DNA of 64,000 bases from Patescibacteria group bacterium (GTDB taxonomy: Bacteria > Patescibacteriota > Microgenomatia > Levybacterales > GWA1-39-11): the NCBI GenBank assembly GCA_035549315.1, contig DASZRC010000027.1, positions 4,514 to 68,513 of the forward strand, read 5' to 3'. A program made the position numbers and the translations under genes. The stretch's first letter is position 1. Every line of letters begins with the position of its first letter. Positions 30,601 to 61,219 of this stretch are shown one piece after another. Below the pieces are notes generated by a model. That model saw only the letters and a list, made by a program, of their open reading frames with translations, was not told the DNA's origin and did no database searches.

Positions 30601-31872
30601 GTGCATAGAAAAGTTATTAAAAAATATATTCATGTAATGAAATATATGGGCTCTAAGCGGGAACTATTAGAGCAAATAGAGAAAATCGTGGCCAAGAATC
30701 TACCTGAGGGCGGGGTTCTTTTAGATATATTTGCAGGAACTTGCGGAGTTGGAATTTATCTTAGAGATAAATATCCAATCTACTCTAATGATATTCAACT
30801 GTATTCAGAATTTATATCTAAAGGAACAGTTGAATCTGGCCCTATCCAAGTAAGTCGTGAACAAGTTTGGGCCCTAATTAAGGATGACTATGAGAAAAAT
30901 TACAATCACGTGTACTCTAAGCTTAAAGAGAGCGTTGATTTAAGCAATAAGTTCATTGCAACTAAGACGTGGACTAAACCAATTCTTGCTGAATATTTGA
31001 AATTTATTAAAAGTCTTCCAAACCCAGAAAACATGGAAATGTTTAAAGGCAAGAACTGGCTTGTAGACAAATATATTGAGCGCTCAAATAAAAATTCCTT
31101 GTTTCCCTACATCCAAACTATATTTTTGTTTTCGGAAATGTATTTTAGCCTAGATCAATCACTAAAAATTGACAGCATAAAATATGCAATAGACAAGTTA
31201 TCAGAAAAAAACCTAGCTTTGGGGAATTTAATGAATGTGGCCTTAATTCATGCCTATAGCTATTGCAGCGCAGGAACTGGTCATTTTGCTCAATTTAGAG
31301 ACTTATCAACTCTAAGTTCGGTTACAGATGTATTTTTATATAGAGGTAGAAGCATTGAGGATTATTTTCTTAAAAAAATGGAAGAGTTAATTTTGGCTAC
31401 GCAACTGAATAAATATCATGATTTGAGCAAATCCTTCTCTCAAAACTACACAACGCTACTAGATAATAAGTCAGTTATGTCTAAAGTTGGCCTTATATAT
31501 GCTGACCCGCCCTATTCGTTTGTCCATTACTCAAGATTCTATCATGCTATTGAGGATTTATGCAGGTATGATTATCCAATAGTGCTACATAAAGGAAGAT
31601 ACAGGACAGACCGCCATCAATCTCCTTTCTGCATTAAAACGTTGGCACCTAAAGCATTCAAAGACTTACTAGCTAAGGCAAACAAATTCAAAATACCAGT
31701 TTTAATATCCTACTCTAATACTGGCATGATTAGACTAAGTCAAATAATCAAGATAGCTAACGATATCGGCTACAAAACGGAGCTAACGGAAGTCGCTCAC
31801 AAGCACTCAACGATGGGAAGACTTAAGGATAAAGATCGCGATGTGACTGAAGCCCTAATTTTATGCAATTAG
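30601..31872 (+). CDS. DNA N6-adenine/N4-cytosine amino-methyltransferase (Dam-like D12 class), the M subunit of a Type II R-M system
   Basis: N-terminal YMGSKR and FAGTCGVG (FxGxG) motifs, and a C-terminal IYADPPYS (DPPY) motif. The gene converges on the REase gene with a 4-bp overlap. Alternative in-frame starts at M13 and M16 lie closer to the conserved motif. Confidence 0.75.
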   Translation: MHRKVIKKYIHVMKYMGSKRELLEQIEKIVAKNLPEGGVLLDIFAGTCGVGIYLRDKYPIYSNDIQLYSEFISKGTVESGPIQVSREQVWALIKDDYEKNYNHVYSKLKESVDLSNKFIATKTWTKPILAEYLKFIKSLPNPENMEMFKGKNWLVDKYIERSNKNSLFPYIQTIFLFSEMYFSLDQSLKIDSIKYAIDKLSEKNLALGNLMNVALIHAYSYCSAGTGHFAQFRDLSTLSSVTDVFLYRGRSIEDYFLKKMEELILATQLNKYHDLSKSFSQNYTTLLDNKSVMSKVGLIYADPPYSFVHYSRFYHAIEDLCRYDYPIVLHKGRYRTDRHQSPFCIKTLAPKAFKDLLAKANKFKIPVLISYSNTGMIRLSQIIKIANDIGYKTELTEVAHKHSTMGRLKDKDRDVTEALILCN

Positions 31873-32504
31873 TTCTCTCCTGCTGCTTCTTCTATTTGCT
31901 CTTTAACTTCCTTAACGCACGCATTTTTAGTTATTGCTAAAACTAAAAGAGGACACTCCGCTGCCCCACCACCTATTATTTTTGGCATAAGTTTCCCTAA
32001 ATGCGTAGTAGATGCACCATAAGATGAACCCTTACCCAGTTCATTAAATAACTCTTGCAATTCATCTGCCCTGGTAACTATGATGCCAACACTAACCACG
32101 CCAATCTGATGCAAAAGCCTAAAGTTATTCAAATCCCTATCAAAGAAGGGGTCTTTGTTATTCCATTCTAATTCAACAGCTATCTTGTTCTTATAGTAGT
32201 CGACGTTATGCGTAGGCGAAGGATTACTCGTACCATCTATCACTACATCCACATCCCATTTTTTCTCTTTCCAGCCATTACCGTATAAAACATTATCGAA
32301 TTTTGTTGCAATTGGTGACTTCCTCCCACCCGGGGTAATAATATCTTCGTGAGTTATTTGAAACTGTTGAAGAAGATCCGAAAGCTGTTTTAATTCCTCA
32401 GGGAAATCATTTTTTAGAATAGCGCTAGCATGTCTAAACTCATGGATGTCGAATTTATGCAGTATTTCAGGACTAAATATTGATGTTGATGATAAGCTTG
32501 TCAT
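31869..32504 (-). CDS. Putative Type II restriction endonuclease with a BamHI/BglII-like catalytic core
   Basis: An E-x-E motif in …KIAVELEWNN… followed by a hydrophobic strand (…LLHQIGVVSVGIIV…) resembles the BamHI active-site arrangement (…GMEFETGN…LAIIL…). The gene is co-transcribed downstream of a C-protein gene and converges on an MTase. Confidence 0.45.
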   Translation of the reverse strand: MTSLSSTSIFSPEILHKFDIHEFRHASAILKNDFPEELKQLSDLLQQFQITHEDIITPGGRKSPIATKFDNVLYGNGWKEKKWDVDVVIDGTSNPSPTHNVDYYKNKIAVELEWNNKDPFFDRDLNNFRLLHQIGVVSVGIIVTRADELQELFNELGKGSSYGASTTHLGKLMPKIIGGGAAECPLLVLAITKNACVKEVKEQIEEAAGEN

Positions 32505-32725
32505 TCAAAAAGTCTTTCTATTTTAACATTTAATCCAATTGATATCTTCTGTAAAGATTTAACCGATAAATTTCTGGCCCCTCTTTCAACCGAACCGATA
32601 TAGTTTCTGTGTAGCTTACAAGCTGATGAAAGCTCCTCTTGAGTGATCGCTTTCATCTCTCTGTATTTTTTAATGTTTCCTCCGATAATTTTTAGTATGT
32701 CTGACATGCCATAAAGTATAACCAA
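32501..32725 (-). CDS. Controller (C) protein, an HTH_XRE-family transcriptional regulator of the R-M system
   Basis: 74 aa with a helix-turn-helix (…ITQEELSSACKLHRNYIGSVERGARN…). Its stop overlaps the REase start (ATGA), which is the canonical C-R arrangement. Confidence 0.75.
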   Translation of the reverse strand: MVILYGMSDILKIIGGNIKKYREMKAITQEELSSACKLHRNYIGSVERGARNLSVKSLQKISIGLNVKIERLFE

Positions 32726-32860: not shown

Positions 32861-32896
32861 GCAGCCAAACAACGTCGCCATTATTGGACGAAAAAC
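32861..32896. repeat. Conserved 3'-end motif GCAGCCAAACAACGTCGCCATTATTGGACGAAAAAC, copy A. It starts 9 bp after the stop of 32905..33540.
   Basis: Copy B (33613..33648) shares ~33/36 nt with it. The core GCAGCCAAACAACGT also occurs at 36047..36061. Confidence 0.75.
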
Positions 32897-32904
32897 TTAA
32901 TGGC

Positions 32905-33540
32905 TTAGGGTTCTTCGTGATATTTTTCCATAAACTCCTGTCTCCACTTTTGTAATCTTGCCGCACTTGGACTATTGGGATCCGGAACATAATCTTTATT
33001 ATTTCCGCCCTCTCTATTAAGATTTTGAATAAATCTTTCCATAACTCTAATATTCTGTAATGAGCCCCTATATTTTCTGCTATATGCGAGCTTCTCAATA
33101 ACTTTTGCATCTTTTGGGTCGAAAATTCCCGCTCCATCCTGTGAATTAACAACAACTATATCGTAGACAAAATCCTTTTTCATCTCATCTGCAAGAGGAC
33201 CAACTAAAAACCTCGTCTCTCTAGGGTTAAATTCAATCTCTTTCCATGCCCCCGCATCGCATAAACCCTCAAATATCTCTATTAATTCCTCTCTAAATGA
33301 CGGTGTTATATGAGCCTGTGGAAGTAATCCCCTGACCCCAACCATAATTCTGTCTTTCAATTCTGATGTTCTGGGCACATCTGAAACTTCCATTGCCGGT
33401 AGACCAAATGCTTTCTCTAATGAACTTGGCTCAACCCTCTTAAATCTCATGTCTCTTCTTGGAAGTAAATCATATAAGCCCAATAATTGGTGATTTAAAA
33501 ATTGAGGATCTTGTGGGATTGGAACGCCTTCTGTTGTCAT
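32905..33540 (-). CDS. Hypothetical protein (211 aa). It is the last gene of the minus-strand hypothetical cluster.
   Basis: ORF only. Confidence 0.45.
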   Translation of the reverse strand: MTTEGVPIPQDPQFLNHQLLGLYDLLPRRDMRFKRVEPSSLEKAFGLPAMEVSDVPRTSELKDRIMVGVRGLLPQAHITPSFREELIEIFEGLCDAGAWKEIEFNPRETRFLVGPLADEMKKDFVYDIVVVNSQDGAGIFDPKDAKVIEKLAYSRKYRGSLQNIRVMERFIQNLNREGGNNKDYVPDPNSPSAARLQKWRQEFMEKYHEEP

Positions 33541-33612
33541 TGGATTGAATTATAAATCCAACCAGCAATAAGGTAAAGTACTTTTGAATAAACGGTCAAA
33601 AACGTCCGACCA

Positions 33613-33648
33613 GCAGCCAAACAACGTGGCAATTATTGGACGAAAGAC
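33613..33648. repeat. Conserved 3'-end motif, copy B (GCAGCCAAACAACGTGGCAATTATTGGACGAAAGAC). It overlaps the stop codon of 33633..35150.
   Basis: Seen in the sequence. Confidence 0.75.
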
Positions 33649-35150
33649 GTAGTTACCTGAATTAATTGAGCTAAGTTTCTTTCCTCTCTCATTCTAAGCC
33701 TCAATTCATCCGCTCTAGTAGATAGTCTTTTTCTCTCCTCTGACCATTTTTCGCGGTCCGTATCTGAATTGGCAGCTTGAATCATTCCATCGAGCGCATT
33801 GCTTCCTCTATTTAATGCTTTTAACTCATGTACCATTAAACCTAATTTATTAAATTCCTCGGCTGCAGAAGAACTCGCAATATAAGATCGATTATCCCAA
33901 TCGGCTCTATTAGCTTTGTCCAATTTTCTTATACGTGATGCCGTCTTTGATAGCTCAATGAGAGCATTAGCAGCCCTTCTTGGATCTTTTACGCGGTCAA
34001 AATCCTGCGCAATCTTTAATTGAGTTTGATATAAAAGTTCAAGATAAGTTATTTTTCTTTTCTCCCAAGTCTCCTTATCCTCTGGTTTCAATTTAATCAT
34101 CCCATCTATTCCTGCTAGACAATATATGAGCTGCGTTACCCGCCTAGAAGGATTGGTTTCCGAATCTGCCATTCTCTTATTCCAACCGATATTTTTATCC
34201 AACCATTGACTCTTATCTTCATCTGTATCTGATAACTTAACCAAATTACTTGTAATGAATGCCGCCAAACCATACTCCGCCCTTAGAGATTCTCCATCCT
34301 GCGCAAGATCTATAGAACGAGTTACAGAATTATCTGCAACAACAAACCATTTCCTAGCCTCGTCTTTATTTACCTCACCATATCCAATCGCAGCTGCAGC
34401 CTGAGCAGACCAGTATATATATACTCTCTCCCCATGAGAATTATCACTCCTATGAGAAACTTCTGCTGCTTTCCGTGCATGATCAAACCATATTTCATCC
34501 CATGCTCTCTTATCTTCTGGAGTATTTACATATAACGCCGCTTTTCTCGCTGATTTATGAAGAGTGGCATGAAAAGTAAATTCCCAACCATTGTTTATAA
34601 GAGATACGGAGTCTAGAATATCATGAAGGTTTTTATATGCCTGTTCTAATAAATCTTTTCGTTTTTCTGGATCTTCCTCTATCTCTGCCTGTTCATTTCT
34701 TGCCCAGGCCTGCATGACAGCGGCAGAAAAAACTTGCCCAGATGAATCTGGCAGTTTTAAATCCAAAGCTTTATCTGACCACTTACATGACTCTTCATAC
34801 CAGTTAATCTTAGCAGCTGGCTCAGTCTCTCCGCGGGCGACTTTAAGTGCACTATCACCTAGATTTACGTATGCCAACAACCTGACCTTGGCGGGCATTT
34901 CTAAATGCAAGATTTTTCTAACCGAGTTGAAGGCTCCAAGCGCATTACCGTCCATCATGTCTACTGTACTATTTTTAATAGCACGGTAGATATTGGGTTT
35001 CCTGACCAAATTAGAACCTCTACCCAAACGCCTATTACTACCTTCTTTTTCTAAAAGAGAATTTGCAAGATCTTCCTCGCCCATATATTGCTCAAGAAGT
35101 GATGCAAAATCTTCTTCTGGTTGAGCACCCGGATTGTCTAGTTCTGTCAT
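33633..35150 (-). CDS. Hypothetical protein (505 aa), predicted all-alpha with repeat-like segments and a C-terminal coiled coil
   Basis: The ORF is preceded by a conserved promoter cassette and followed by motif B. Confidence 0.5.
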   Translation of the reverse strand: MTELDNPGAQPEEDFASLLEQYMGEEDLANSLLEKEGSNRRLGRGSNLVRKPNIYRAIKNSTVDMMDGNALGAFNSVRKILHLEMPAKVRLLAYVNLGDSALKVARGETEPAAKINWYEESCKWSDKALDLKLPDSSGQVFSAAVMQAWARNEQAEIEEDPEKRKDLLEQAYKNLHDILDSVSLINNGWEFTFHATLHKSARKAALYVNTPEDKRAWDEIWFDHARKAAEVSHRSDNSHGERVYIYWSAQAAAAIGYGEVNKDEARKWFVVADNSVTRSIDLAQDGESLRAEYGLAAFITSNLVKLSDTDEDKSQWLDKNIGWNKRMADSETNPSRRVTQLIYCLAGIDGMIKLKPEDKETWEKRKITYLELLYQTQLKIAQDFDRVKDPRRAANALIELSKTASRIRKLDKANRADWDNRSYIASSSAAEEFNKLGLMVHELKALNRGSNALDGMIQAANSDTDREKWSEERKRLSTRADELRLRMREERNLAQLIQVTTSFVQ

Positions 35151-35154
35151 GTGC

Positions 35155-35210
35155 GTATTTTATCAAAAAATGAGGCTAAATGCTCAAGGTTAGTTAGGAG
35201 AGGTTAGTTG
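35155..35210 (-). promoter_or_regulatory. Conserved promoter cassette, copy 1. On the minus strand it reads …AACAACTAACCTCTCCTAACTAACCTTGAGCATTTAGCCTCATTTTTTGATAAAATACGCAC-ATG. A TAAAAT -10 lies 6 nt before the start of 33633..35150, and the cassette also contains a remnant of a small-gene 3' end.
   Basis: About 50 of 53 nt are identical to copy 2 at 36971..37024. A diverged third copy lies at 35985..36015. Confidence 0.55.
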
Positions 35211-35299
35211 TTTTTTATTGAGCCACTTACATTATCAGGCAAATTATCAAAATATAATTTCCTTTGATCTTCCTCAAGTTTACCAATCTGTTTTTCATT

Positions 35300-35980
35300 T
35301 TATTTGTTTACTACTGCATACAAATACTTATATGCATCGACTGCAAGCTGTGCGCCCGCAAGAGTAAATTCCGGAATCAACAATCCATGATAATCGGCAG
35401 CAAAAAGCTGTCTCCTCATACTCTTTAGTTGCTCTTCTACTGTTTTTTCTCCAGAATTATCCTTAATTAAAGTATCACTACGTCTTTTTGCTTGATCTAT
35501 TAACTTCAGATAATATTCTGCGTCTTTAACAGCGTCTAGCTCCACGCCGTTTACAACTCTAACATAATCCATTGATTCCTGAACGACTTGTCCCGCGGTT
35601 CCTGCTATATACTCCTCTCCCGAAGAAATCGAATTAATAATTACACCAGCACCCACTGATGCATCAGCCAAAACAAAGAAGTGATTCATTTCATTCTTGC
35701 CCATCTCAACAAGTGCATCTTTACCCATAACCCCGGAAAGATCCACCATTAATCGTGCTGTAATTAAGCCTGGAACGGAATGCCCTTTGCCAGATTCCCT
35801 ACTATCTCTTATTTCTCCCGCAATATCAGTTTTTTTATCCTTAAGCCCTCTCATGAGAGCTTGCTTGTAGCCGGAAAAATAAGCAAGAGTATCTCTTTTA
35901 TCTGCTTTTGACAGATTTCTTGATCTTTCACCCCACATCACCCTGTATGTAAACACTAAATCATTTTCCTGATTTGCCAT
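35300..35980 (-). CDS. Hypothetical protein, 225-aa family paralog P1
   Basis: Shares with 36285..36962 the motifs WG(E/D)RSRNLS, YFSGY(K/R)Q, LADAS, GEEYIAG and an identical 23-aa C-terminus EFTLAGAQLAVDAYKYLYAVVNK. Confidence 0.55.
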   Translation of the reverse strand: MANQENDLVFTYRVMWGERSRNLSKADKRDTLAYFSGYKQALMRGLKDKKTDIAGEIRDSRESGKGHSVPGLITARLMVDLSGVMGKDALVEMGKNEMNHFFVLADASVGAGVIINSISSGEEYIAGTAGQVVQESMDYVRVVNGVELDAVKDAEYYLKLIDQAKRRSDTLIKDNSGEKTVEEQLKSMRRQLFAADYHGLLIPEFTLAGAQLAVDAYKYLYAVVNK

Positions 35981-36046
35981 AACGCGTATTTTACCAAAAT
36001 ATATGCCTAAAAGCTTATTTTATTTTTATATCCTACAAAAAATTGG

Positions 36047-36061
36047 CAGCCAAACAACGTT
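36047..36061. repeat. Core GCAGCCAAACAACGT, copy C
   Basis: Seen in the sequence. The upstream context AAAAATTGGCAGCC resembles copy A. Confidence 0.6.
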
Positions 36062-36164
36062 TCCATACAAGAATTTAAAATTTAGAAATATTTTGACTCA
36101 TATATGAGACAAAATAAATTAAAAGTTAAGATAAAGAATGTAGTTGTTTGTGGAAGAAAGATCT

Positions 36165-36282
36165 AACTATTTCTTATTGGGGATTCAGCATATTCATTTT
36201 CTTTGTAAATATATGCCTGTACCCTTACTGCTCGTAGATACCCACCTTCTTCTTCCTCAATATTTCCGAATCTTTCTTTCAT
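36165..36282 (-). pseudogene. Truncated duplicate (39 codons) of the N-terminus of the small-paralog gene 37356..37706. It sits 2 bp after the stop of paralog P2.
   Basis: ATGAAAGAAAGATTCGGAAATATTGAGGAAGAAGAAGG matches the first ~38 nt of 37356..37706 except for 3 substitutions, and the sequence then diverges to a stop. A more decayed copy (ATGAAAAACAGATTGGTAAACTTGAGGAAGATCAAAGG) lies at ~35220..35290, directly after paralog P1. Confidence 0.55.
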
Positions 36283-36284
36283 TT

Positions 36285-36962
36285 TTATTTGTTTACTACC
36301 GCATACAAATACTTATATGCATCAACTGCTAATTGAGCTCCTGCGAGCGTAAACTCCGGAACCCACAGCCCTCTATATCCCGCAACTGAAAATCCCTTTC
36401 TCAAACTTTTTAATTTATCCTCTACCGTCTTCGCTCCAGAATTATCCTTAATTAAGGCGGAACTACCTAGCTTTGCCTCCTCCATCATCTTTATATATAT
36501 CCCTGCACCACGTACTGCATCTATGCTTGGGTCAAAAGATTCTGCTACATATCCAATAGTTTCGCTCACTTTGTTTTCCGCAATTCCTGCGATATATTCT
36601 TCCCCTTCTGTTACTGAATGCAAGACTAAGGTGGAACCCATGGATGCATCAGCTAAAACTAAAAAATTGTTAACTTTATTCGCCGCCATTTGATTGAGCG
36701 CGTCATGGTCTATTACCCGAGGAATCTCCATCACTAAACGATTGGCTATTAGGCTAGGGACCGAGAGCCTAGTCCTATCTGCTGTAGCAGTCTTTATATC
36801 AGCCACAAGCTCATCCCTCTTATTTTTTAGATCTCTTAATAACGACTGCCTGTATCCGGAGAAGTAGAACATAGCAGCTTTTTTATCTGCTTCCGAAAGA
36901 TTTCTACTTCTATCTCCCCACGCTTCTCTCATTCTAAATACTAATCCAGCTTCATGATTCAT
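36285..36962 (-). CDS. Hypothetical protein, 225-aa family paralog P2
   Basis: Paralogous to 35300..35980. The last ~45 nt of the two genes are nearly identical, and a promoter cassette copy lies upstream. Confidence 0.55.
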   Translation of the reverse strand: MNHEAGLVFRMREAWGDRSRNLSEADKKAAMFYFSGYRQSLLRDLKNKRDELVADIKTATADRTRLSVPSLIANRLVMEIPRVIDHDALNQMAANKVNNFLVLADASMGSTLVLHSVTEGEEYIAGIAENKVSETIGYVAESFDPSIDAVRGAGIYIKMMEEAKLGSSALIKDNSGAKTVEDKLKSLRKGFSVAGYRGLWVPEFTLAGAQLAVDAYKYLYAVVNK

Positions 36963-36970
36963 AATGGTTG

Positions 36971-37024
36971 CATTTTATCAAAAAATGAGGCTAAATGCTC
37001 AAGGTTAATTAGGAGAGGTTAGTG
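36971..37024 (-). promoter_or_regulatory. Conserved promoter cassette, copy 2. It is upstream of paralog P2 and overlaps the last codons and stop of 37009..37353.
   Basis: Near-identical to 35155..35210. Confidence 0.55.
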
Positions 37025-37353
37025 AGCCTTTTTTCCATTGATAGACTTACTTCTATTGCCCTTCTTTTTCTTACTAAGAAATCTACAAAATTCCATTCTA
37101 TTTCCTTTATCTCTCCACCTTTACTTAGAACCTTTTTAATCCTTTCATCTTGTGCATATGTTGGCCCCAAACCAATAACAACTACAGCCTGCATATATTT
37201 ATTACCTTCTATGTATACTGTTGCTCCGGGATTTTGCTTCACAATTCTATCAACTACAAAATACGCCCCGAGCGATTGACGCAGAGATTTAAAAATCGCT
37301 GCCCTAACATATACGCCTTCTTCTTTAAAAATTGGTCCGAGTTTTTCCGCCAT
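37009..37353 (-). CDS. Small hypothetical protein (114 aa), small-paralog family member C
   Basis: Shares the pattern …EEGxYxRxA…NPGAxV…VVVIG… with 37769..38131 and, more loosely, with 37356..37706. Confidence 0.5.
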   Translation of the reverse strand: MAEKLGPIFKEEGVYVRAAIFKSLRQSLGAYFVVDRIVKQNPGATVYIEGNKYMQAVVVIGLGPTYAQDERIKKVLSKGGEIKEIEWNFVDFLVRKRRAIEVSLSMEKRLTNLS

Positions 37354-37355
37354 GA

Positions 37356-37706
37356 TTAGTTACGTCTTATTGGATCCATTTGTCCATTAGAATATTTTTT
37401 GAGTGCTTGATCACTATAAATTCCTTCAACCCTAGAAATAAGATCATCGTCAAATTGCATTATTCGTCCTGATATTGCAAGTGCATTAGTTATCGCCTTA
37501 TCAACTGTTTCCCTGGGTTTTTGCCTTGCACTTACAATAAGGAGAAACTTTTCTCCATAAGGAAGACCTGCGACATTAACGCTTGCACCATTAATAGCTG
37601 CCAATATTCCATCTCCCGCCCAGGAAACTTCATCCTGTGAATCCACTTCTGCAACTCTTAGGTATATTCCTTCCTCTTCCTCAATATTTCCAAATCTTTC
37701 TTTCAT
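37356..37706 (-). CDS. Small hypothetical protein (116 aa), small-paralog family member B. It has weak roadblock/LC7-like character (GDGILAAINGASVNVAGLP).
   Basis: ORF with a 2-bp gap to the downstream gene. Its N-terminus is duplicated twice downstream as decayed fragments. Confidence 0.5.
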   Translation of the reverse strand: MKERFGNIEEEEGIYLRVAEVDSQDEVSWAGDGILAAINGASVNVAGLPYGEKFLLIVSARQKPRETVDKAITNALAISGRIMQFDDDLISRVEGIYSDQALKKYSNGQMDPIRRN

Positions 37707-37768
37707 AGAAAGGAATTATATGATTAAAGTGGGGAAAAGTAAATTTAAGTCACCTCTAAGTTAAGAGG

Positions 37769-38131
37769 TTAGTTGTTTGAGGCAAGCTTTTGCTTTAAGG
37801 ATTCTTCTATTTCTTCTCCTATTCTTTTTCTAAGTAAACCATCAACTACCAACTCATGTACGTTAATTTCTCTTCCATTCTTATCTTTCAAAGCACTCAT
37901 AATATCATTATCAAAACGCCAATAAGATTCATCATCTCCAATAACAATAACCGTACTCATATTCTTATTTCCCGGGGGAACCAAATGCACTTGTGCACCA
38001 GGATTTCTATCTACTATTCCGGAGACGGAATTAAATGCTTTATCCGCTTGTATTGGATCATAGAATATTGCACCCCTTACATACCTTCCTTCGTCCTTCT
38101 CAATAGCGCTTCTTTGTCTTTCATTTTTCAT
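37769..38131 (-). CDS. Small hypothetical protein (120 aa), small-paralog family member A
   Basis: Paralogous to 37009..37353. Confidence 0.5.
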   Translation of the reverse strand: MKNERQRSAIEKDEGRYVRGAIFYDPIQADKAFNSVSGIVDRNPGAQVHLVPPGNKNMSTVIVIGDDESYWRFDNDIMSALKDKNGREINVHELVVDGLLRKRIGEEIEESLKQKLASNN

Positions 38132-38218
38132 AAGTTTTTAATAATTATTATTCTGTGATTTCTTATGCCACAAGTTAAGTATTATAAGATTGATAAGTTA
38201 AAAAGTAAAATTAAGTAG

Positions 38219-38695
38219 CTATTCCTCAAACGGATTAGGGAGAGGATCGCGGGGCGGAAGATATTTAGCATAATAAGCCATAATATGGAGATTCATATCT
38301 ACCCCTAATTCTTGGTATGCTGCCAAATATTTCATTTTTGCTTCCTGAATTCTTAATGCTGCAAGCTCAGGATCAAGGCCACCCAAGACATCATCTACAA
38401 TTCTTTTTCCTATGGGAGGTAGATACAATGTCTGCTCTTTTCTATCCTTATTATAGGAATCTTCCATTAAGCCCCTATTATGGATTCTCCCTCCTAGTAT
38501 ATTTAAGGAATATAAAGTTCTTTGCGCAACATTAGCCTCGGATAAATCAAGAGATGAGTACAAGCCTTTAACTCTGTCTAACTCTTGCCTAGCTGTTTCT
38601 AGTGTAATTTCAGGATAGGGCTCGGGCTCAGGCGCCACATTTTCCGGCTTTCTCCAGAAAGCGAATCTACCAAATTTACCGCGTCTTGATTCCAT
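38219..38695 (-). CDS. Hypothetical protein (158 aa)
   Basis: ORF only. Confidence 0.45.
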   Translation of the reverse strand: MESRRGKFGRFAFWRKPENVAPEPEPYPEITLETARQELDRVKGLYSSLDLSEANVAQRTLYSLNILGGRIHNRGLMEDSYNKDRKEQTLYLPPIGKRIVDDVLGGLDPELAALRIQEAKMKYLAAYQELGVDMNLHIMAYYAKYLPPRDPLPNPFEE

Positions 38696-38731
38696 AATCT
38701 ATATTATAGGTCTAATTGTTTAAAAGTCAAA

Positions 38732-39202
38732 CTAAGATTTTTTACGGGGAAATTGCGGAATTTGATCCGGAGTTACGATACCTCTTTTAACAAGCTCAAA
38801 TAATCTACTGCCATCTGTTATTTGTGCCTTCAATCTATCTATCTCAGCCAAGGCAGCTCTATTCACCCCAGCATCATTTCTTCCTGGATCAACCATTTGT
38901 TCCCGAAAAAACTGGGCTGCTTTCCTAACCCTTACCGATGGCTTATCATAATCCCAACTTTCTCTTGCAGCTTGAACATCGCGAATATTTTCAAAAGATC
39001 TACCATCAAAAAATCCAAAATCCAAATCTGGAATTCTATTATTAATAGCAACTTCATCTGCTATGGCAATTACTTGCGCAGCATTAACAATCCCTTCTCT
39101 TGTTAAAATTTTTCGTGTTCTGGGATCTAAACGTAAAAGCTCAAGTCCCATCTGAGAGAATCGATTTGGCTGATACCTATCTTCTTTTTGATCTGCACTC
39201 AT
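38732..39202 (-). CDS. Hypothetical protein (156 aa)
   Basis: ORF only. Confidence 0.45.
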   Translation of the reverse strand: MSADQKEDRYQPNRFSQMGLELLRLDPRTRKILTREGIVNAAQVIAIADEVAINNRIPDLDFGFFDGRSFENIRDVQAARESWDYDKPSVRVRKAAQFFREQMVDPGRNDAGVNRAALAEIDRLKAQITDGSRLFELVKRGIVTPDQIPQFPRKKS

Positions 39203-39240
39203 AAAACGGATTATAAGATTTTAGATGTGAAGTTGCAAAC

Positions 39241-39921
39241 CTATCCTACAGCAACCGGCTCTTGGGGATGATGCTTGTCATATACTCCCATTATTTCTTC
39301 TAATTTTTCTTTTGCCTCTGTCATTAGCTGGTCATCCGGATTAGCCAATAAAGTTTTGTAATTTTTCCTCATATCAGAAAGCATTTCATCAAGTTCTTCA
39401 ACCCTTGTTGAGTGATTTTCTACAACATAGTAAACAAAGTTGCTATGATATGGGTCATTCTGTGCCGTTAACTCTTCTCCTGGTTTTAAAGGCGTGCGTG
39501 GCCTTCCGCCTTTTTCAACAAGAAAATAATGGTCCCGTCTTATAAAATCTGCAATAAGATCTCTAACCAAAAGCTTTTTATCTATGGGACTATTTGTAAC
39601 TTCTTGATAAAAAGTAGCTACCGCTCCGCTGAAATCTTCCCCAACGCTACCCTGAGTTAAAATCATTCCGGCTTTGTTTTCTCTAGGATGATTACCGGAC
39701 AAAACTACATTTGCCATCTTTCCCTCAAGGGCAGAATCCAACCCGACGTCTTCCACTAGTTCGTCTGTCATAACCCAATCAGGCCTAATACTTTTTGCAT
39801 ATGAAAACATTTTTCTTTGAGCAAGCTTATCTCCTTGAGAAAGCGGGAATGTTGCAAAAACAATTGCTTTTGCTTTATCTGCTGTGAGTGGGGGATATTG
39901 CCCTGGCTTCTCTTCTTCCAT
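39241..39921 (-). CDS. Hypothetical protein (226 aa), the first gene of the minus-strand cluster
   Basis: ORF only. It has weak, unconvincing similarity to the P1/P2 family in its central region. Confidence 0.45.
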   Translation of the reverse strand: MEEEKPGQYPPLTADKAKAIVFATFPLSQGDKLAQRKMFSYAKSIRPDWVMTDELVEDVGLDSALEGKMANVVLSGNHPRENKAGMILTQGSVGEDFSGAVATFYQEVTNSPIDKKLLVRDLIADFIRRDHYFLVEKGGRPRTPLKPGEELTAQNDPYHSNFVYYVVENHSTRVEELDEMLSDMRKNYKTLLANPDDQLMTEAKEKLEEIMGVYDKHHPQEPVAVG

Positions 39922-40216: not shown

Positions 40217-43200
40217 ATGCAGAAGAAAAAGAAAACATTAAACAGAAAAAACTTACAAAACCCTGAGTTTTATGGACTCCCAAAGTACACACAATTTTTC
40301 TACACTCTCCTGTCTCTAATTTTTGTTTTCGGCTTTGCTCTCTGGTGGTTTCAACCAAACCATATACCTTTTAACTTTGCCGGAGAACTCCGTTTTATAG
40401 ATATTCTCTTATTTCTAACCGTAAGCTACATTATCTGGCAACCAATAACAATGGATATTTTGACATGGGCAATTTCATCCAACATAAAAGATATTCGTCA
40501 CCAAAAACCGACCGCCGGATCAAAAGTAGCTTTTATAACAACCATAGTTCCTGCTAGTGAATCACTAGATTTACTACATAAATGTTTACCTGCTATGGTA
40601 GATGCGTCATACCCGCATGACACTTGGCTTTTAGATGAAGGGGATAGCGCTGAAGTAAAAGAAATTTGTAGAAAATATGGTGTCCACTATTTTACAAGAC
40701 ATGGCAGGGAAGAATTTAACACCCCAAATGGAAAGTTCACCAAAACAAAAGGCGGAAACCACAATTCTTGGTATGAAGTCTATGGAGATAATTATGATTT
40801 TGTTGCCCAGATTGATACAGACTTTGTCCCCAAAAAAACTTTTCTCACAAAAACATTAGGATACTTTAGGGATCCAAAAGTTGCTTTTGTTGGTACTCCA
40901 CAAATATATGGAAATACAGATGAGTCAATAATTGCAAGAGGAGCAGCGGAACAACTTTATACATTCTACGGATCTGTTTTAAAAGGATTAAGTAGTATGA
41001 AGATGACTCTACTTATTGGGGCAAACCATATTATTAGAGTTGCAGCCTTACGTAATGTTAATCACTATAGTGCACATATAACTGAAGATTTAATAACGGG
41101 AATGAAACTCCATGCCAACGGTTGGGAGAGCGTTTACATTTCAGAACCTCTTGCAGTTGGGGAGGGCCCATCAACCTGGGAGGCATATTTTAGTCAACAA
41201 ATGCGTTGGGCGTATGGATGTATGGATATATTTTTCCACCACAGCCCAAAACTATTTAAAAGAATGGGGCTAAGAAGAACAGTATATTATTTCTTTCTCC
41301 AACAACATTATTTTACAGGACTTGCCATGGCGCTAAGTATAATTTTGATAAGTCTTTATTTTTTCCTAGGACTTAGGGCAGCAAATGTAGACCTCTACAA
41401 ATTTTTTGGGCTCTACTCCGTAACCCTCATAATTTGTTGGCTAATGTCTGTTTTCCTACAAAGGTTCAACGTATATAGAAAAAGTGAAGGGGAAATGCTA
41501 GTTGCCGGAAAACTTATTAGTATTGCGGCATGGCCCGTTTGGTTCTTGGCATTTATAAGTTTGGTTACCGGTAAAAAATTATCATACAAAGTTACTCCAA
41601 AAGGGGAAAATGACGCAAAACCAAAAAGGTCCTTTAAAATTTTTATTCCCCATATAACACTGGGGTTAATAACATTGGCAGGACTTCTTTATTCTATTTT
41701 CATAGGAAGACAAAACATTGGAATGGTTTTCTGGGCAAGTGTTTCTATTATTCTTATGTTTAGTGTTCCATTTACCCAAGAAATAGATGATTTTACAAAG
41801 AAAGCGCAGAAAATTATGGTAAGGGTAGGTTTTAAACTTTATAAAATAATAAGAAAAATTGATAGCAAACTTACACCGGAATTATTTAAATCAAGCGAGG
41901 AAAATGATGTCAAAAGGGTTAAAAAAATTGCCCCAAGAAAAAGATATCTTAATGATTATGTTTTTCTAACTCTTGTAGTAATTATTTCATCTGTTCTCTA
42001 TATAAATAAGATTTCATTTTATAGTGATGACTGGTCATTCTTGGGAAACTTTAGTTTGTCACAAAACCATTCACTACTTGGATTATTCCAAACAGCAACA
42101 ACACCAAATACATTAATGCGCCCCGTCCAAAATTTTTATGAAGCGCTTCTATATTGGTCTTTTGGAACATCACCTCTTGGCTACCAACTGGTAAATTTGG
42201 GAATATTTATTGGAATAGTTGTATTTTTCTATACCGTTCTAAGGCAGCTCAAAGTACCAAGACTTTTATCCGTTGCGATTCCCCTTGTCTATGTACTGCT
42301 CCCCAATTATTCAACAGACAGATTTTGGTTTGCGGTACATCAAGCAAACCTTAGCGTACTATTTTATTTTATAAGCCTTTTTGCTGCTTTAAAATCCGTA
42401 TCACGTTTTACACTTAGAAAAAGTCTATGGAAAGTAATTAGTATAGTGGCCCTTTTATTAAGCGTATTAAGTTATGAAGTTGTTATTCCATTATTTGTAA
42501 TAAACTTATTTATTTTGTGGAACCCATACAATCTTTTCTTAAGAATTGTTTATGGGAAAAGACGGTCAAATATGGTTTTTATAAGCGTAATCTCCATATT
42601 TCTTCTTTATACCTTGGTCTTCAAAGCACTTACAACAAGGCGCCTTACCGGAGGCATTGACATAAACTACATCCTACATGTTTTGGGATCTGCGATACAT
42701 GTAAATTACGGTTCTTGGTTTATTAACCTACCATACATATGGGGAGAAATAATTTCTGCCCATACCGATCCAATTCTTCTTGCACTAACCGGAATAATGT
42801 ATGTTTTTATTTTCTATCATTTATATTCCCTTGCATCAGACCCCGATTTTAAATTCCCTACAATTTCTGCAATGAAAACTCTAACACTTTCTAGTTTTGT
42901 TATTTTCTTTTTGGGATATGCAATTTTTTTCACAAACAACCAAGTTGGATTTTCTCCAACGGGGGTTGAGAATAGAGTTGCTATTGCAGCAGCCATTGGA
43001 GTGGCTATGACTTTTGTTGGGCTATCCGGATGGTTAAGTAAAATATTTTTGCCGGAAAAAGCAGCAAAGGTAATGTTTTGCATTATTCTATCTTTGATAT
43101 GCGCCGGAAGTTTTTTGACCGTTAATACAATTGCATCTTTTTGGGCCGATGCAGGATCCAAGAGCACCAAAGTTCTTGCCGACATACATAAAGAATTTCC

Positions 43201-43570
43201 TACTGTGAACAATAAAAGTACAATACTTCTTGATGGAGTGTGTCCATATGTTGGACCGGCACCGGTTTTTGAAGCAGATTGGGATCTTAAAGGAGCACTG
43301 GAAACATATTACCTCAAACCATTGAATGCAGATATTGTGACGCCTCGCCTAAAGGTAAAAGACAATAGCATAACAACTACTATTTATACATTCACCACAA
43401 GCTATCCTTATAAAAACATGTACATCTACAATTACAAAACCAAACAAATTTTCAAAATTAATGATGCTGACGATGCGCATGCATACTTTAATACGTACAA
43501 CAATGACCTAAATAATGGCTGTCCCAATGCAGAGGCCGGAAAGGGTGTGGCTATCTTTAAATTTATATGA
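40217..43570 (+). CDS. Family-2 glycosyltransferase (processive cellulose/beta-glucan-synthase-like, BcsA-type) fused to a ~600-aa C-terminal polytopic membrane domain
   Basis: Carries the D, DxD, TED and QxxRW motifs (…DEGDSAEV…, …QIDTDFVPK…, …ITEDLITG…, …QQMRWAYG…). A GGAGGAGG SD lies upstream. Confidence 0.75.
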   Translation: MQKKKKTLNRKNLQNPEFYGLPKYTQFFYTLLSLIFVFGFALWWFQPNHIPFNFAGELRFIDILLFLTVSYIIWQPITMDILTWAISSNIKDIRHQKPTAGSKVAFITTIVPASESLDLLHKCLPAMVDASYPHDTWLLDEGDSAEVKEICRKYGVHYFTRHGREEFNTPNGKFTKTKGGNHNSWYEVYGDNYDFVAQIDTDFVPKKTFLTKTLGYFRDPKVAFVGTPQIYGNTDESIIARGAAEQLYTFYGSVLKGLSSMKMTLLIGANHIIRVAALRNVNHYSAHITEDLITGMKLHANGWESVYISEPLAVGEGPSTWEAYFSQQMRWAYGCMDIFFHHSPKLFKRMGLRRTVYYFFLQQHYFTGLAMALSIILISLYFFLGLRAANVDLYKFFGLYSVTLIICWLMSVFLQRFNVYRKSEGEMLVAGKLISIAAWPVWFLAFISLVTGKKLSYKVTPKGENDAKPKRSFKIFIPHITLGLITLAGLLYSIFIGRQNIGMVFWASVSIILMFSVPFTQEIDDFTKKAQKIMVRVGFKLYKIIRKIDSKLTPELFKSSEENDVKRVKKIAPRKRYLNDYVFLTLVVIISSVLYINKISFYSDDWSFLGNFSLSQNHSLLGLFQTATTPNTLMRPVQNFYEALLYWSFGTSPLGYQLVNLGIFIGIVVFFYTVLRQLKVPRLLSVAIPLVYVLLPNYSTDRFWFAVHQANLSVLFYFISLFAALKSVSRFTLRKSLWKVISIVALLLSVLSYEVVIPLFVINLFILWNPYNLFLRIVYGKRRSNMVFISVISIFLLYTLVFKALTTRRLTGGIDINYILHVLGSAIHVNYGSWFINLPYIWGEIISAHTDPILLALTGIMYVFIFYHLYSLASDPDFKFPTISAMKTLTLSSFVIFFLGYAIFFTNNQVGFSPTGVENRVAIAAAIGVAMTFVGLSGWLSKIFLPEKAAKVMFCIILSLICAGSFLTVNTIASFWADAGSKSTKVLADIHKEFPTVNNKSTILLDGVCPYVGPAPVFEADWDLKGALETYYLKPLNADIVTPRLKVKDNSITTTIYTFTTSYPYKNMYIYNYKTKQIFKINDADDAHAYFNTYNNDLNNGCPNAEAGKGVAIFKFI

Positions 43571-44550
43571 TACCTAAAGTTATTTTTATTTTTATCACTA
43601 TTGTTTTGATATTAGGTGGCAGTTATACACTGCTTAATAACCACCCGCATCAAGAAATTTTACTTGGTGCTTGGACACAAGGATTTTATGATGCAAACCA
43701 GAAAAAGTTAAACCCTCAAAAACTTTTAGACTTTGAGTCTTTAACAAAGAAAAAATATTCTATAGCCCATTATTACAGAGGATGGGAATCTTTTATTGAT
43801 CCCACTCTTGTTAAAGAATTTAGTTTACTAAGAAAAAACGGATGGACCCCAATGCTTAGCTCTAACCCATATTATTTTTCTGATTGTCCCGTGCAAACTG
43901 AATCAATATACAAAAGCATTGCAGAAGGTAAGTGTGACGAGTTTTTAAATAAAGCCGGGGAAAATTTAAAGAAAATTAACAAACCGTTTTATTTGGCTTT
44001 TGCTTGGGAAATGAATAACAAAGATCTTGAATGGAGTGTTCCTTATACAGGGAGCTCTCCACAAGATTTTGTAGATGCATGGCGCCACATTCATGATATG
44101 TTTGAAAAACACGGAGCAAAAAATATACTCTGGGTATTTTGTCCAAATATTCCGGATGTTCCCCACCCGTCCTATAAAGACCTTTATCCCGGCGACAAAT
44201 ACGTAGACTGGACTTGTTTAGATGGATACAACTGGGGGACAACTCAAAGTTGGAGCAAATGGACAAGCTTTACAGACATTTTTGGTTCCTCCTATCAAAC
44301 CATTTCAGACATAGCTCCGGGCAAACCATTAATGATTGGGGAAGTAAACACAACAGATGTTGGCGGAAACAAAGCGGGTTGGTACGGGGATGCATTTAGG
44401 GATATTCCCTACAATTTTCCAAACATAAAAGCTGTTGTTATTTTTAATGAAGATAAAAGCAAACAGGAAAATGTTAATTGGAGAGTTGATGTCTCAAAAG
44501 ATTCTTTGAATTCTTATATATCTGCAATTAAACCTGCGATTTATAAATAG
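43567..44550 (+). CDS. Clan GH-A glycoside hydrolase (GH26/GH113-like endo-beta-1,4-glycanase) with an N-terminal TM
   Basis: …LAFAWEMNN… supplies the acid/base Glu and …MIGEVN… the nucleophile Glu. The gene overlaps the upstream GT2 by 4 bp. Confidence 0.55.
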   Translation: MIPKVIFIFITIVLILGGSYTLLNNHPHQEILLGAWTQGFYDANQKKLNPQKLLDFESLTKKKYSIAHYYRGWESFIDPTLVKEFSLLRKNGWTPMLSSNPYYFSDCPVQTESIYKSIAEGKCDEFLNKAGENLKKINKPFYLAFAWEMNNKDLEWSVPYTGSSPQDFVDAWRHIHDMFEKHGAKNILWVFCPNIPDVPHPSYKDLYPGDKYVDWTCLDGYNWGTTQSWSKWTSFTDIFGSSYQTISDIAPGKPLMIGEVNTTDVGGNKAGWYGDAFRDIPYNFPNIKAVVIFNEDKSKQENVNWRVDVSKDSLNSYISAIKPAIYK

Positions 44551-44561
44551 GTTTTTTAAAT

Positions 44562-47420
44562 ATGAATATTCTGTCCTATTACAAAATTATGGAATTTGAT
44601 ACGGCAAGAACGCCTCCGTTACCGTCTGCTCCCACAGATCAAGAAAAATATATGTACCTTAAAAGGGGTAATAGATCTCTTATCTTTTTTTCAATAATAA
44701 GCTTTATTGGAATTTATATTAGTCTGTTTGATTTTCTTGGTAATCACACAGCACTTTGGCCACTGTATGTGTACCTTGTTCTTACCGGAATTTATTTTGT
44801 AGATTCTATTATTGTTAATTTCTTCTCAAAAGATTTTGACATTAAAAAACATAAATATCTGGTTAATAAATGGTCCAAGGGTCTTGATAGAAGGGTTGAT
44901 GTTTTTCTGCCAACAGCCGGAGAAGATATATCCATATTACAAAACACGTGGAATGGAATATTAGACATGACCAAAAACTTTGGCGGGAAAATCCAAGTCT
45001 ATTGTCTTGATGACTCAGCAAGAACGGAAGTCAAAACTCTGGCAGAAATATATGGATTCAATTACATAGTCAGACCAAAAAGAGGATGGTTTAAAAAATC
45101 CGGAAACCTGCGATATGGGTACAAAGTTTCTAATGGAGAATTTATTGCAATTTTTGATGCAGACTTTAAACCAAGGGCAGACTTTTTGAATGAACTTTTA
45201 CCTTACTTACTTGAATATAAAGATGTAGGACTAGTCCAATCCCCGCAATATTTTGATGTAAACAAAAATCAGAATTGGCTGCAAAGGGGCGCAGGAGAAG
45301 TACAAGAATTATTTTATAGAATGTGCCAAGTTTCTCGCCAAAGCCACAACGCCTCAATTTGCGTTGGCTCAAATGCATTGTATAGAAGAGACGCACTTGC
45401 AGAATCCGGAGGGACAGCGCTTATTCAACACTCAGAAGATGTACATACCGGTTTCAACATGAGAATGAAGGGATGGACGATACAATATATCCCAATAGTT
45501 CTTGCCAAAGGCCTTTGTCCTGACGACATGGTCTCTTTCTTCAAACAACAATACAGGTGGTGCATGGGGTCAATGACACTTTTGTCCTCTCATAAATTTT
45601 GGCATACCAAAATTTCATTAAAGGCTCGCCTCTCATATTTCTCCGGATTTTTATATTATATTCATACTGCAATTAGTTCTTTTATAGCGCCAATTATTCC
45701 GCTAACCGTCCTAATCTTTTTCCCGGAAAAAGTTTATTGGGGAACATATCTCTATATTCTTCCTTCAATAATATTTATACAAATCATTTATCCTCTTTGG
45801 CACAGAGCCGTTTATGGCATTGAAGCTTGGTCAACCAGAATTGTTTATGGATGGGCTCATCTATATGCAATTTTTGACGGAATAACAAAGGACGCAATGT
45901 CATGGCAGCCAACCGGAACAAAAAGTAAAGCAGACCCCAAGTATTTTAGATTTAGACTGTTACAAATAATTTTTAATTTATTACCCTCTATTGTTTGGGT
46001 TTATCTTGCAGCCCGCCAGGTAATTGTCTACAACAACTTTGTTTTTATTCCAATATTATTAAGCGGAATTTATTACTACCTAATATGTGCAAAGATTAGT
46101 TTCTTTGTTTCCAACAGCAGACTAAATTTTGGTGATTTATTTTCTGCAAATATCAAAAGCGTGTCAAAACAAATTGTAATTGCTATGCCGTTATTAATAT
46201 TAGTTTCTCTGGGGGTATTACTTTTTAATGCCAACTCTTTGAATATTAAATTTAATTTCTACCAGAGCAAACCAATAGTAAGCGGGGTTAGCCAAAAGAA
46301 GACTTCTATTAAAAATGCTTATGCAAATAACACATTGATTCAGAGTGTTAATAATGATGAGATATTATTAAAGACGTGGACATATTACAAAGATAATTTT
46401 GTTACAGAAAATGGCCAAAGCATTGACCCTGATAGACAATACAAAACAACTTCTGAAGGACAATCATACATACTGCTAAGAAGTGTGATAATAAATGATA
46501 AAGATACGTTTGAAAAATCCTGGAGCTGGACAAAAGAAAATCTTCAGCACAAACAAAATGATAAACTTTTTTCTTGGTTATGGGGAGGAGCAACTCCTGC
46601 AAAAGAAAAAGTTATCTATAAAGAAAACGCAACAGACGCAGATGAAGATATTGCATTGGCTTTAATACTTGCATCATACAAATGGAACAATAAGGAATAT
46701 TTAGCGGAAGCAAAGGCAATAATTTCTGACATATGGAAATTTAATGTTGTTAAACAAAACACCAGATATTATTTATTGGGAGGATCACAATTTAATAAAC
46801 CCCAAGGATTTGTTATAAACCCATCCTACATCTCTCCTGCCTCGTACAAAATATTCTCCGCTGTTGATAAAGATCATCCTTGGAAAAATCTGGCAAAAGA
46901 TTCATATTACTTACTCCAAAAAATTAATCTAGATACCCCCAATACGGTTGGTCTTCCTCCAAATTGGATATTGTTAAGTAGGTCCGGAAAAATTACCAAA
47001 GCAACAATTTTTGTTACCGGCAACTCTGACATGTACGGCTATGATGCATTTAGGACTTTTTGGAGAGTAGCGCTTGACGCAAATTGGTTTGACAACAAAG
47101 AAGCAAAAGATTATCTAAGTATTGCAGAAATATTTTTTGGAGAAAAATGGAATAAGGATAAAAAGATAAATGCAGTATATACTACAGATGGAAAAGTAAT
47201 AGATAGTAAACAAAGTGTTAGCACCTATACCGGCCCACTTTCTGTATTTAGCATAAGGGACAAAAAGATAGCGGATGAAATTTACAAAGACTACTATAAT
47301 AAGCAGCTAAACCATGATGGATACTGGGGAAACGGAAAAAATTATTATGACCAAAACTGGGCTTGGTTTGCAACTGCTTTGTATTCCGGCAATATAAAAC
47401 TTCCAAAAAACTTACCCTAA
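44562..47420 (+). CDS. Fusion protein: an N-terminal GT2 cellulose-synthase-like domain (BcsA-type) and a C-terminal GH8 endoglucanase domain (BcsZ-type)
   Basis: The GT2 motifs are …CLDDSARTE…, …FDADFKP…, …SEDVHTG… and QQYRW. The GH8 signature motifs are …TTSEGQSYILL… and …ATDADEDIALALILASYKW…. Confidence 0.75.
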   Translation: MNILSYYKIMEFDTARTPPLPSAPTDQEKYMYLKRGNRSLIFFSIISFIGIYISLFDFLGNHTALWPLYVYLVLTGIYFVDSIIVNFFSKDFDIKKHKYLVNKWSKGLDRRVDVFLPTAGEDISILQNTWNGILDMTKNFGGKIQVYCLDDSARTEVKTLAEIYGFNYIVRPKRGWFKKSGNLRYGYKVSNGEFIAIFDADFKPRADFLNELLPYLLEYKDVGLVQSPQYFDVNKNQNWLQRGAGEVQELFYRMCQVSRQSHNASICVGSNALYRRDALAESGGTALIQHSEDVHTGFNMRMKGWTIQYIPIVLAKGLCPDDMVSFFKQQYRWCMGSMTLLSSHKFWHTKISLKARLSYFSGFLYYIHTAISSFIAPIIPLTVLIFFPEKVYWGTYLYILPSIIFIQIIYPLWHRAVYGIEAWSTRIVYGWAHLYAIFDGITKDAMSWQPTGTKSKADPKYFRFRLLQIIFNLLPSIVWVYLAARQVIVYNNFVFIPILLSGIYYYLICAKISFFVSNSRLNFGDLFSANIKSVSKQIVIAMPLLILVSLGVLLFNANSLNIKFNFYQSKPIVSGVSQKKTSIKNAYANNTLIQSVNNDEILLKTWTYYKDNFVTENGQSIDPDRQYKTTSEGQSYILLRSVIINDKDTFEKSWSWTKENLQHKQNDKLFSWLWGGATPAKEKVIYKENATDADEDIALALILASYKWNNKEYLAEAKAIISDIWKFNVVKQNTRYYLLGGSQFNKPQGFVINPSYISPASYKIFSAVDKDHPWKNLAKDSYYLLQKINLDTPNTVGLPPNWILLSRSGKITKATIFVTGNSDMYGYDAFRTFWRVALDANWFDNKEAKDYLSIAEIFFGEKWNKDKKINAVYTTDGKVIDSKQSVSTYTGPLSVFSIRDKKIADEIYKDYYNKQLNHDGYWGNGKNYYDQNWAWFATALYSGNIKLPKNLP

Positions 47421-55231: not shown

Positions 55232-55255
55232 GTTATAGGCAATAGGTATTAGGGG

Positions 55256-55328
55256 TGGGCGCGATAGGACTCGAACCTATGACCAGGTGTGTATAAGACA
55301 CCCGCTCTACCAACTGAGCTACACGCCC
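55256..55328 (-). tRNA. tRNA-Ile with a genomically encoded UAU anticodon
   Basis: A canonical 73-nt cloverleaf: acceptor GGGCGTG/CGCGCCC, D-arm TAGCTCAGTTGGTAGAGC, anticodon stem GGTGT/ACACC, loop CTTATAC and T-loop GGTTCGAGTCC. Confidence 0.8.
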
Positions 55329-61193: not shown

Positions 61194-61219
61194 CAAAAGT
61201 TAGTAGTAGAGCATACCCA

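Follow-up and report, generated by a model that had tools for sequence, protein, structure and literature searches.

Head-to-tail copies of a promoter, a 225-aa gene and a small-gene start in a Patescibacteria chromosome: a probable lineage-specific tandem duplication in partial decay

The window analysed here, a single stretch of 64,000 nt taken as a whole, is part of a bacterial chromosome (∼36% guanine plus cytosine (GC), with a transfer-messenger RNA (tmRNA) and transfer RNAs (tRNAs)) from a metagenome-assembled genome (MAG) of the Patescibacteria, also called the Candidate Phyla Radiation (CPR). In a minus-strand gene cluster of this window, a segment composed of an extended -10 promoter, a gene for a protein of 225 amino acids (aa) and the start of a small gene occurs twice, head to tail. 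A third small-gene remnant and promoter precede a gene of 505 aa (g505), and three intact small paralogs (s120, s116 and s114) lie upstream. The two 225-aa genes are designated P1 and P2, and the shortened small gene between them s39. The duplicated region has a GC content of 37–39%, and the part that includes P1, P2, s116 and s120 bears the NCBI locus tags VG917_04490 to VG917_04510, on a contig of 164 kb. Coordinates are positions in the window, and the minus-strand genes are read from right to left, in the 5' to 3' order g226, g156, g158, s120, s116, s114, P2, s39, P1, a 149-nt spacer, g505 and g211. The features of the repeated region are as follows.

38181..38209, minus strand: promoter-like site of s120, TTTACT-17-TATAAT, matching 10 of 12 consensus positions
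37769..38131, minus strand: s120, intact small gene, 120 aa, 40% identical to s114 (E 4e-16)
37715..37743, minus strand: promoter-like site of s116, TTTACT-17-TATAAT; 8 nt separate its -10 box from the ATG
37356..37706, minus strand: s116, intact small gene, 116 aa; both remnants have their template-like relative in its 5' end
37009..37353, minus strand: s114, intact small gene, 114 aa, starting 2 nt past the s116 stop (TAATCATG)
36972..37023, minus strand: 52-nt repeat, copy A, comprising the s114 end (TNLS-stop), a TTGAGC -35-like hexamer and the extended -10 box of P2 (TGATAAAAT)
36285..36962, minus strand: P2, 225 aa, of an unannotated all-helical family
36163..36282, minus strand: s39, 39-codon stub of an s116-like small gene, starting 2 nt past the P2 stop
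36016..36132, minus strand: ∼110-nt spacer specific to the P2–P1 interval, containing a palindrome and the 15-mer ACGTTGTTTGGCTGC
35984..36015, minus strand: diverged P1 promoter copy, with an extended -10 box (TGGTAAAAT) ending 7 nt upstream of the ATG
35300..35980, minus strand: P1, 226 aa, paralog of P2 (52% protein and 63% DNA identity)
35209..35298, minus strand: small-gene relic after P1, with an s116-like 5' end and an s114/s120-like 3' end, the middle (∼250 nt) gone
35157..35208, minus strand: 52-nt repeat, copy B, comprising an orphan small-gene 3' end and the extended -10 promoter of g505 (TGATAAAAT), ending 6 nt upstream of the ATG
33633..35150, minus strand: g505, 505 aa, not a P paralog, with the repeated promoter upstream
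33613..33651, minus strand: g505 3' end and terminator-like motif, with a second copy at 32861-32899 downstream of g211 (90% over 39 nt, E 3.5e-8)

Segment identities and expectation (E) values were taken from a blastn self-comparison of 32.7–40.0 kb, which recovered the duplicated segments that a preliminary description of the locus had read from its sequence. The strongest match joined 35268-36015 to 36251-36999, collinear and in the same orientation, with 63% identity over 750 nt (E 1e-81) and a repeat period of 984 nt. In each copy the collinear block begins ∼35 nt upstream of the P start, includes the whole of the P gene and continues past its stop for ∼30 nt into the start of a small gene. 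The homology thus crosses the gene boundaries, with promoter, P gene and small-gene start contained in both copies.

At the protein level, P1 and P2 were 52% identical. Among the positions with identical residues, the same codon was used in only 50%, and the duplication is therefore old at silent sites, which are saturated. The C-terminal 24 residues are identical in the two proteins; within this stretch, 7 of the first 11 codons differ synonymously, which points to selection at the protein level, and 12 of the last 13 residues share the codon. P1 and P2 are by far each other's closest relatives (52% identity, versus at most 24% to any other family member), so that the duplication is lineage-specific. 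Between P1 or P2 and g505, no similarity better than E 0.048 (over 22 aa) was detected.

The promoters of the locus are also repeated. The segments at 35157-35208 and 36972-37023, upstream of g505 and P2, respectively, were identical at 51 of 52 positions (E 3.5e-17), close to the 50 of 53 or so given in the preliminary description. A promoter core of 33 nt (CCTTGAGC...GATAAAAT) is exact in both copies, and none of the shuffled windows contained two matches to it. Copy A encodes the end of s114 (...LTNLS-stop), and copy B reads KKQLTSPN-stop in a frame that is joined to no gene, both as originally reported. Upstream of the tract the homology continues at a lower level (16 of 22 positions), and the two sites therefore share descent. 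The third, more diverged promoter copy that had been noted upstream of P1 was likewise recovered: 35984-36015 is 81% identical to 35153-35184 of the g505 copy (E 0.006) and matches the P2 copy at 22 of 28 positions, and its score was reached in 0 of 2000 shuffles. A further promoter pair, those of s120 and s116 (38181-38216 versus 37715-37750), gave a weak match of 75% over 36 nt (E 0.049), which, if real, would possibly add another duplication. The repeated non-coding elements were also considered as structured RNAs and rejected as such: their fold z-scores ranged from -0.15 to -1.4, that of the 52-nt repeat (-0.15) being no better than shuffles, and Rfam gave no match in the region.

To judge from these comparisons, the duplication of P1 and P2, in which the DNA is 63% identical and the silent sites are saturated, is too old to account for an identity of 51/52. 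The identity of the tract is far above that of the flanking paralogous sequence, and its jump to 98% would be best explained by recent short gene conversion or re-copying. Given the contrast between the saturated synonymous sites and the tract, we infer that gene conversion has acted recently at the tract. The duplicated tuf genes and the rRNA operons of bacteria are known examples of gene conversion and concerted evolution. The short tract of 98% identity amid paralogous DNA of ∼63% resembles these cases and differs from them in being only 52 nt long and mostly non-coding promoter; here conversion is read from the contrast in identity alone.

A selected cis-element shared by the two sites is the alternative. 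The 52-nt tract, perhaps together with the 15-mer ACGTTGTTTGGCTGC, would then represent an operator and promoter that co-regulate P2 and g505, a proposal that accords with the 51/52 identity against a 63% background and with the span of the match over the whole promoter. Within the 64 kb there are exactly three copies of the 15-mer (32861, 33613 and 36046; 0.05 expected by chance), all in this cluster and each where a gene or gene remnant has its 3' end. Against such an operator, the identity reaches past the -35-like hexamer by ∼20 nt on its upstream side, into the coding end of s114 in one copy and a non-coding relic in the other. Moreover, despite the paralogy of P1 and P2, the promoter copy of P1 has drifted to ∼80%, which speaks against strong selection over the whole tract, and Pfam and other family scans picked out no regulator gene in the cluster. 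We therefore regard co-regulation through a conserved operator as unlikely, and recent conversion or re-copying as the better account of the tract.

The copy of the 15-mer at 36046-36060 is followed by a run of T and belongs to the ∼110 nt of the P2–P1 spacer that are absent from the other two junctions. The same spacer contains a unique, near-perfect palindrome of 24 bp at 36091-36114 (TTTTGTCTCATATATGAGTCAAAA), a possible operator or weak hairpin. A 39-nt stretch made up of the last g505 codons and the 15-mer motif recurs downstream of g211, an unrelated gene, with 90% identity. The 15-mer may serve in termination or as a binding site; folding against shuffled controls revealed no hairpin common to its copies.

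The remnants of small genes lie immediately after each P gene. Two bases beyond the P2 stop, a small-gene start (ATGAAAGAAAGATTCGGAAATATTGAGGAAGAAGAAGG; 36245-36282, minus strand) opens s39, and as earlier proposed its frame ends after 39 codons; it differs from the 5' end of s116 by two substitutions over 38 nt, where three had been counted. The match extends over 52 nt at 85% identity (36231-36282 versus 37655-37706, E 1.5e-10). Its 13 N-terminal residues are those of s116. Eight bases differ within the first 51 nt, five of them in codons whose residue is unchanged. In searches with a hidden Markov model (HMM) of the small family, the match of s39 was confined to profile positions 1–21, and past residue 23 no significant similarity to the family was found by HMM or by comparison with shuffles. 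The stub has 39 codons, versus 116 for s116.

After P1 the erosion has gone further. A single base separates its stop from a small-gene start (ATGAAAAACAGATTGGTAAACTTGAGGAAGATCAAAGG; 35261-35298), and the local alignment of these 38 nt with the 5' ends of s116 or s39 scored above all 2000 shuffles, in agreement with the decayed copy first suggested at this position. A deletion of 1 nt breaks the frame after codon 7; the frame of the ATG shows no further similarity and forms an open reading frame (ORF) of 23 codons. In its layout, an s116-like 5' end is joined to an s114/s120-like 3' end and followed by a promoter of the s114 type, the whole relic measuring ∼90 nt versus 345–363 nt for the intact small genes. 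Disabling lesions are thus present in both remnants, namely a frameshift and a large deletion in the P1 relic and shortening in s39.

The preliminary description had treated s116 and s114 (its small gene C) as separate things. In addition to the match between s114 and s120 listed above, s116 aligns over its full length to the small family at 30%, and the N-terminal motif G.I.EEG.Y.R is common to the members. As judged by these alignments, s120, s116, s114 and the two remnants are one small-protein family. A k-mer-indexed search with this family gave only the genome itself, and no PDB relative was found.

The ORFs after P2 and P1 (39 and 23 codons) might instead be functional, for example as translationally coupled mini-proteins or leader peptides. 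The intact frame of s39 2 nt past the P2 stop, its 13 conserved N-terminal residues and the placement of five of its eight early base differences in residue-neutral codons are in keeping with this, as is the fact that s39 was also called as a gene in the annotation of the Logan assembly described below. The copy after P1 is frameshifted after seven codons, with no further similarity in the frame of the ATG, and s39, at one third of the intact length, lacks significant family similarity past residue 23. Function for the two ORFs is therefore considered distinctly improbable, and truncation and decay of redundant small genes remain the preferred reading.

That the similarities are due to chance in AT-rich, low-complexity sequence or to an assembly artefact can practically be dismissed: the GC content is low and several of the shorter matches (E 0.006–0.05) are weak taken singly, but the main matches have E values of 1e-81 to 1e-10, both the 33-nt core and the P1 relic beat the shuffled controls, and the matches are collinear, at equivalent positions relative to stops and starts. 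An independent assembly, the Logan assembly of SRR12170510, is 100% identical to 35428-37001 of the window (1574 nt), across P2, s39 and P1, and the arrangement is therefore not an artefact of the MAG assembly. The Logan contig ends 30 nt inside the 52-nt repeat, as expected for a repeat that branches a k-mer graph.

Taken together, the locus is a case of ordinary tandem duplication, divergence, pseudogene erosion and local homogenisation within an orphan gene cluster. We consider it likely that a nested, lineage-specific tandem duplication occurred in this Patescibacteria chromosome and is now part-way through decay. The distance from the start of s116 to that of s39 is 1424 nt, which equals s116, s114, promoter and P2 combined. 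This offset and the composite P1 relic favour an ancestral unit of ∼1.4 kb, probably composed of an s116-like gene, an s114-like gene, a promoter and P (∼1.42 kb). Such a unit would have been doubled by unequal recombination or replication slippage, and the redundant pairs of small genes would then have lost their interiors by deletion, giving rise to the 39-codon stub and the frameshifted relic. The P genes and their promoters would have remained under selection. The ∼110 nt with the terminator-like motif would have come to sit between the stub and the P1 promoter, and later short gene conversion or re-copying would have homogenised the 52 nt shared by the s114/P2 and relic/g505 junctions.

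The preliminary description had proposed at least two rounds of segmental duplication of a unit of small gene, promoter and downstream gene, with loss of the small gene from two copies. The tandem duplication and the truncation or frameshift of two small-gene copies were borne out. The third complete unit was not: there are only two 225-aa genes, and the third promoter fronts the unrelated g505.

Several observations weigh against this history. The third unit contains no P gene; either its P copy was deleted precisely or the module of small gene and promoter was copied alone. Retention of the small-gene 3' ends is weak, as 359 of 2000 shuffles were as good for s39 and 57 of 2000 for the P1 relic, with 89 of 2000 in the other 3'-end comparison. 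The stub s39 is still an open frame with a conserved N-terminus and may thus have a function instead of being in decay. Searches of 5.8 billion proteins and of the GTDB representative genomes yielded no close relative, and promoter and terminator activity in this locus is read from sequence alone.

Tandem duplication followed by pseudogenisation of the redundant copies is the classical model of unequal recombination, or amplification and divergence. The locus agrees with this model in its head-to-tail copies, in the homology across gene and promoter boundaries, in the retention and divergence of P1 and P2, and in the truncated or frameshifted small genes. It differs in that the genome is a streamlined one of the CPR, the promoter abuts the start codon, and a third, partial copy precedes an unrelated gene. 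CPR genomes are streamlined, and few pseudogenes or recent paralogs are believed to occur in them. The evolutionary event itself is a textbook one, and the locus offers a clean and internally dated case in such a genome.

The arrangement of promoters relative to start codons is relevant to this history. The three repeated promoters carry an extended -10 element, TGnTAAAAT (TGATAAAAT or TGGTAAAAT), which ends 6, 7 and 9 nt before the ATGs, and boxes similar to TATAAT are situated 7–9 nt upstream of the starts of g211, s116, g158, g156 and g226. No Shine-Dalgarno (SD) motif was found at these genes of the cluster, and SD motifs are rare across the window. In 20 of the 61 long ORFs of the window, a TAWAAT motif ends 5–10 nt before the start codon, and it almost never does so at other distances. 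Example sites of this apparently leaderless layout in the window include 17641, 25010, 27508-28101, 50800-52119, 55422, 60245 and 62755. On this evidence the organism appears to use leaderless mRNAs widely.

Extended -10 (TGn) promoters with leaderless mRNAs are known from Actinobacteria, Deinococcus and archaea. The cluster resembles these systems in having TGnTAAAAT or TATAAT 6–9 nt before the ATG, without an SD motif; it differs from them in that its promoters are known from sequence only. Literature searches revealed no description of a leaderless layout for translation in Patescibacteria (CPR). In a layout of this kind, a duplicated gene would stay expressed only if its promoter were copied along with it. 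The need of leaderless genes for a promoter of their own would explain why promoter copies persist at every junction, and the locus illustrates how a leaderless layout forces promoters to be copied with genes.

The distribution of the P family was studied with a profile of P1 and P2, searched with HMMER against 1.84 billion representative proteins. The profile found 31 proteins including P2 itself, and the 30 relatives were 192–276 aa in length, with E values of 1e-11 to 1e-3 and 18–24% identity to P2. In a phmmer comparison, P1 matched one family member at 3.8e-15. The family is characterised by the motifs F..D...G, (A/G)E, L(I/L)KDPSGF (KDxSG) and, at the C-terminus, PEFVxAGAxLA..YK.LYP. Residues D105, G109, E121, D173, G176, G208, Y216 and Y220 show little or no variation, and all are present in both P1 and P2; such conserved acidic residues, glycines and tyrosines may mark a functional site. 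None of the relatives had a Pfam domain or a PDB sequence match. The AlphaFold2 model of P2, computed from the family alignment, was of high confidence and all-helical, with 11 helices (predicted local distance difference test score 92.8, predicted template modelling (TM) score 0.90), and no Foldseek match was found in PDB or BFVD (TM below 0.3).

Other searches retrieved few relatives. A k-mer-indexed search with P2 gave only P2 and its paralog, and with a profile of 32 sequences it gave four proteins, namely P1, P2 and two relatives already known. Scans of the GTDB representative genomes, made with two different alignments, detected no P relative, and a scan of metagenomes of the Joint Genome Institute (JGI) yielded only four distant loci.

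In other metagenomes, the P genes are found among housekeeping genes. They follow topA, immediately precede a SpoU methylase gene, or do both (contigs L002 and L007 and a JGI contig), or they occur in the order lepA, P, hrcA-grpE-dnaK (contig L012). On one CPR contig (L002, 2766-3491 and 3776-4507; partly also L003), two adjacent and highly diverged P genes are located between topA and the SpoU methylase gene, and tandem duplication therefore recurs independently in the family. At no other locus does a P gene adjoin a member of the small family, the neighbours including a SpoU methylase gene, a RelB/RelE-like pair and hrcA. The pairing of small gene and P is therefore particular to this genome, and its interpretation as a conserved functional module was rejected. 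P1 and P2 resemble this unannotated CPR family of ∼230 aa in length, all-helical prediction and motifs; they differ in being only 18–24% identical to its members and in belonging to an orphan cluster beside a restriction-modification system. The analysis flags two wholly unannotated protein families, and the P family may merit structural or functional follow-up independently of the duplication.

The repeated segments belong to a block of ten consecutive genes on the same strand (32905-39921), most of which have a strong promoter-like site of their own. The remaining members of the block are listed below.

39241-39921, minus strand: g226
38732-39202, minus strand: g156
38219-38695, minus strand: g158
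32905-33540, minus strand: g211, 211 aa

None of the ten genes could be assigned to a known defence, phage, Pfam or NCBIfam family, and their proteins gave no usable match in Pfam, NCBIfam, PADLOC or PHROGs. The cluster proteins that were queried gave no PDB sequence hit and no Foldseek match. A phage or mobile origin was considered and rejected, as tblastn of P2 and g505 against phage genomes produced no matches. Hidden paralogs within the cluster were also rejected, since hhalign comparisons of the P profile with g226 and g211, and of the small-family profile with g158 and g156, were negative.

The least unlikely role for the small and P proteins is in a lineage-specific accessory process, a guess for which the tests support no specific role. 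A more elaborate proposal, to which we give little credence, is that the ten-gene orphan block is a lineage-specific module of fast turnover, for example in host interaction or defence. The small proteins would then be partners of P and g505, with their copy number in flux, and the 52-nt tract, the 15-mer and the palindrome would be selected cis sites. If so, the duplication and decay would record adaptive amplification and pruning and not neutral decay.

The block is flanked on one side by a BglII-like restriction-modification system with a C-protein and on the other by cellulose-synthase-like glycosyltransferases. The former (30601-32725) is a type II cassette composed of a D12-class N6-adenine methyltransferase, a BglII-like endonuclease and a C-protein of 74 aa with a helix-turn-helix. 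Within 40217-47420, a protein of 1117 aa has an N-terminal cellulose-synthase-like GT2 domain, the remainder being without a Pfam match and hydrophobic-looking by eye, and a second large fusion protein of 952 aa combines GT2 and GH8 domains; a GH26-like gene is located between the two. Elsewhere in the window, a tRNA-Ile with a UAU anticodon is located at 55254-55328, and the tmRNA (60782-61194) is predicted to encode a tag peptide of 31 residues, which is unusually long.

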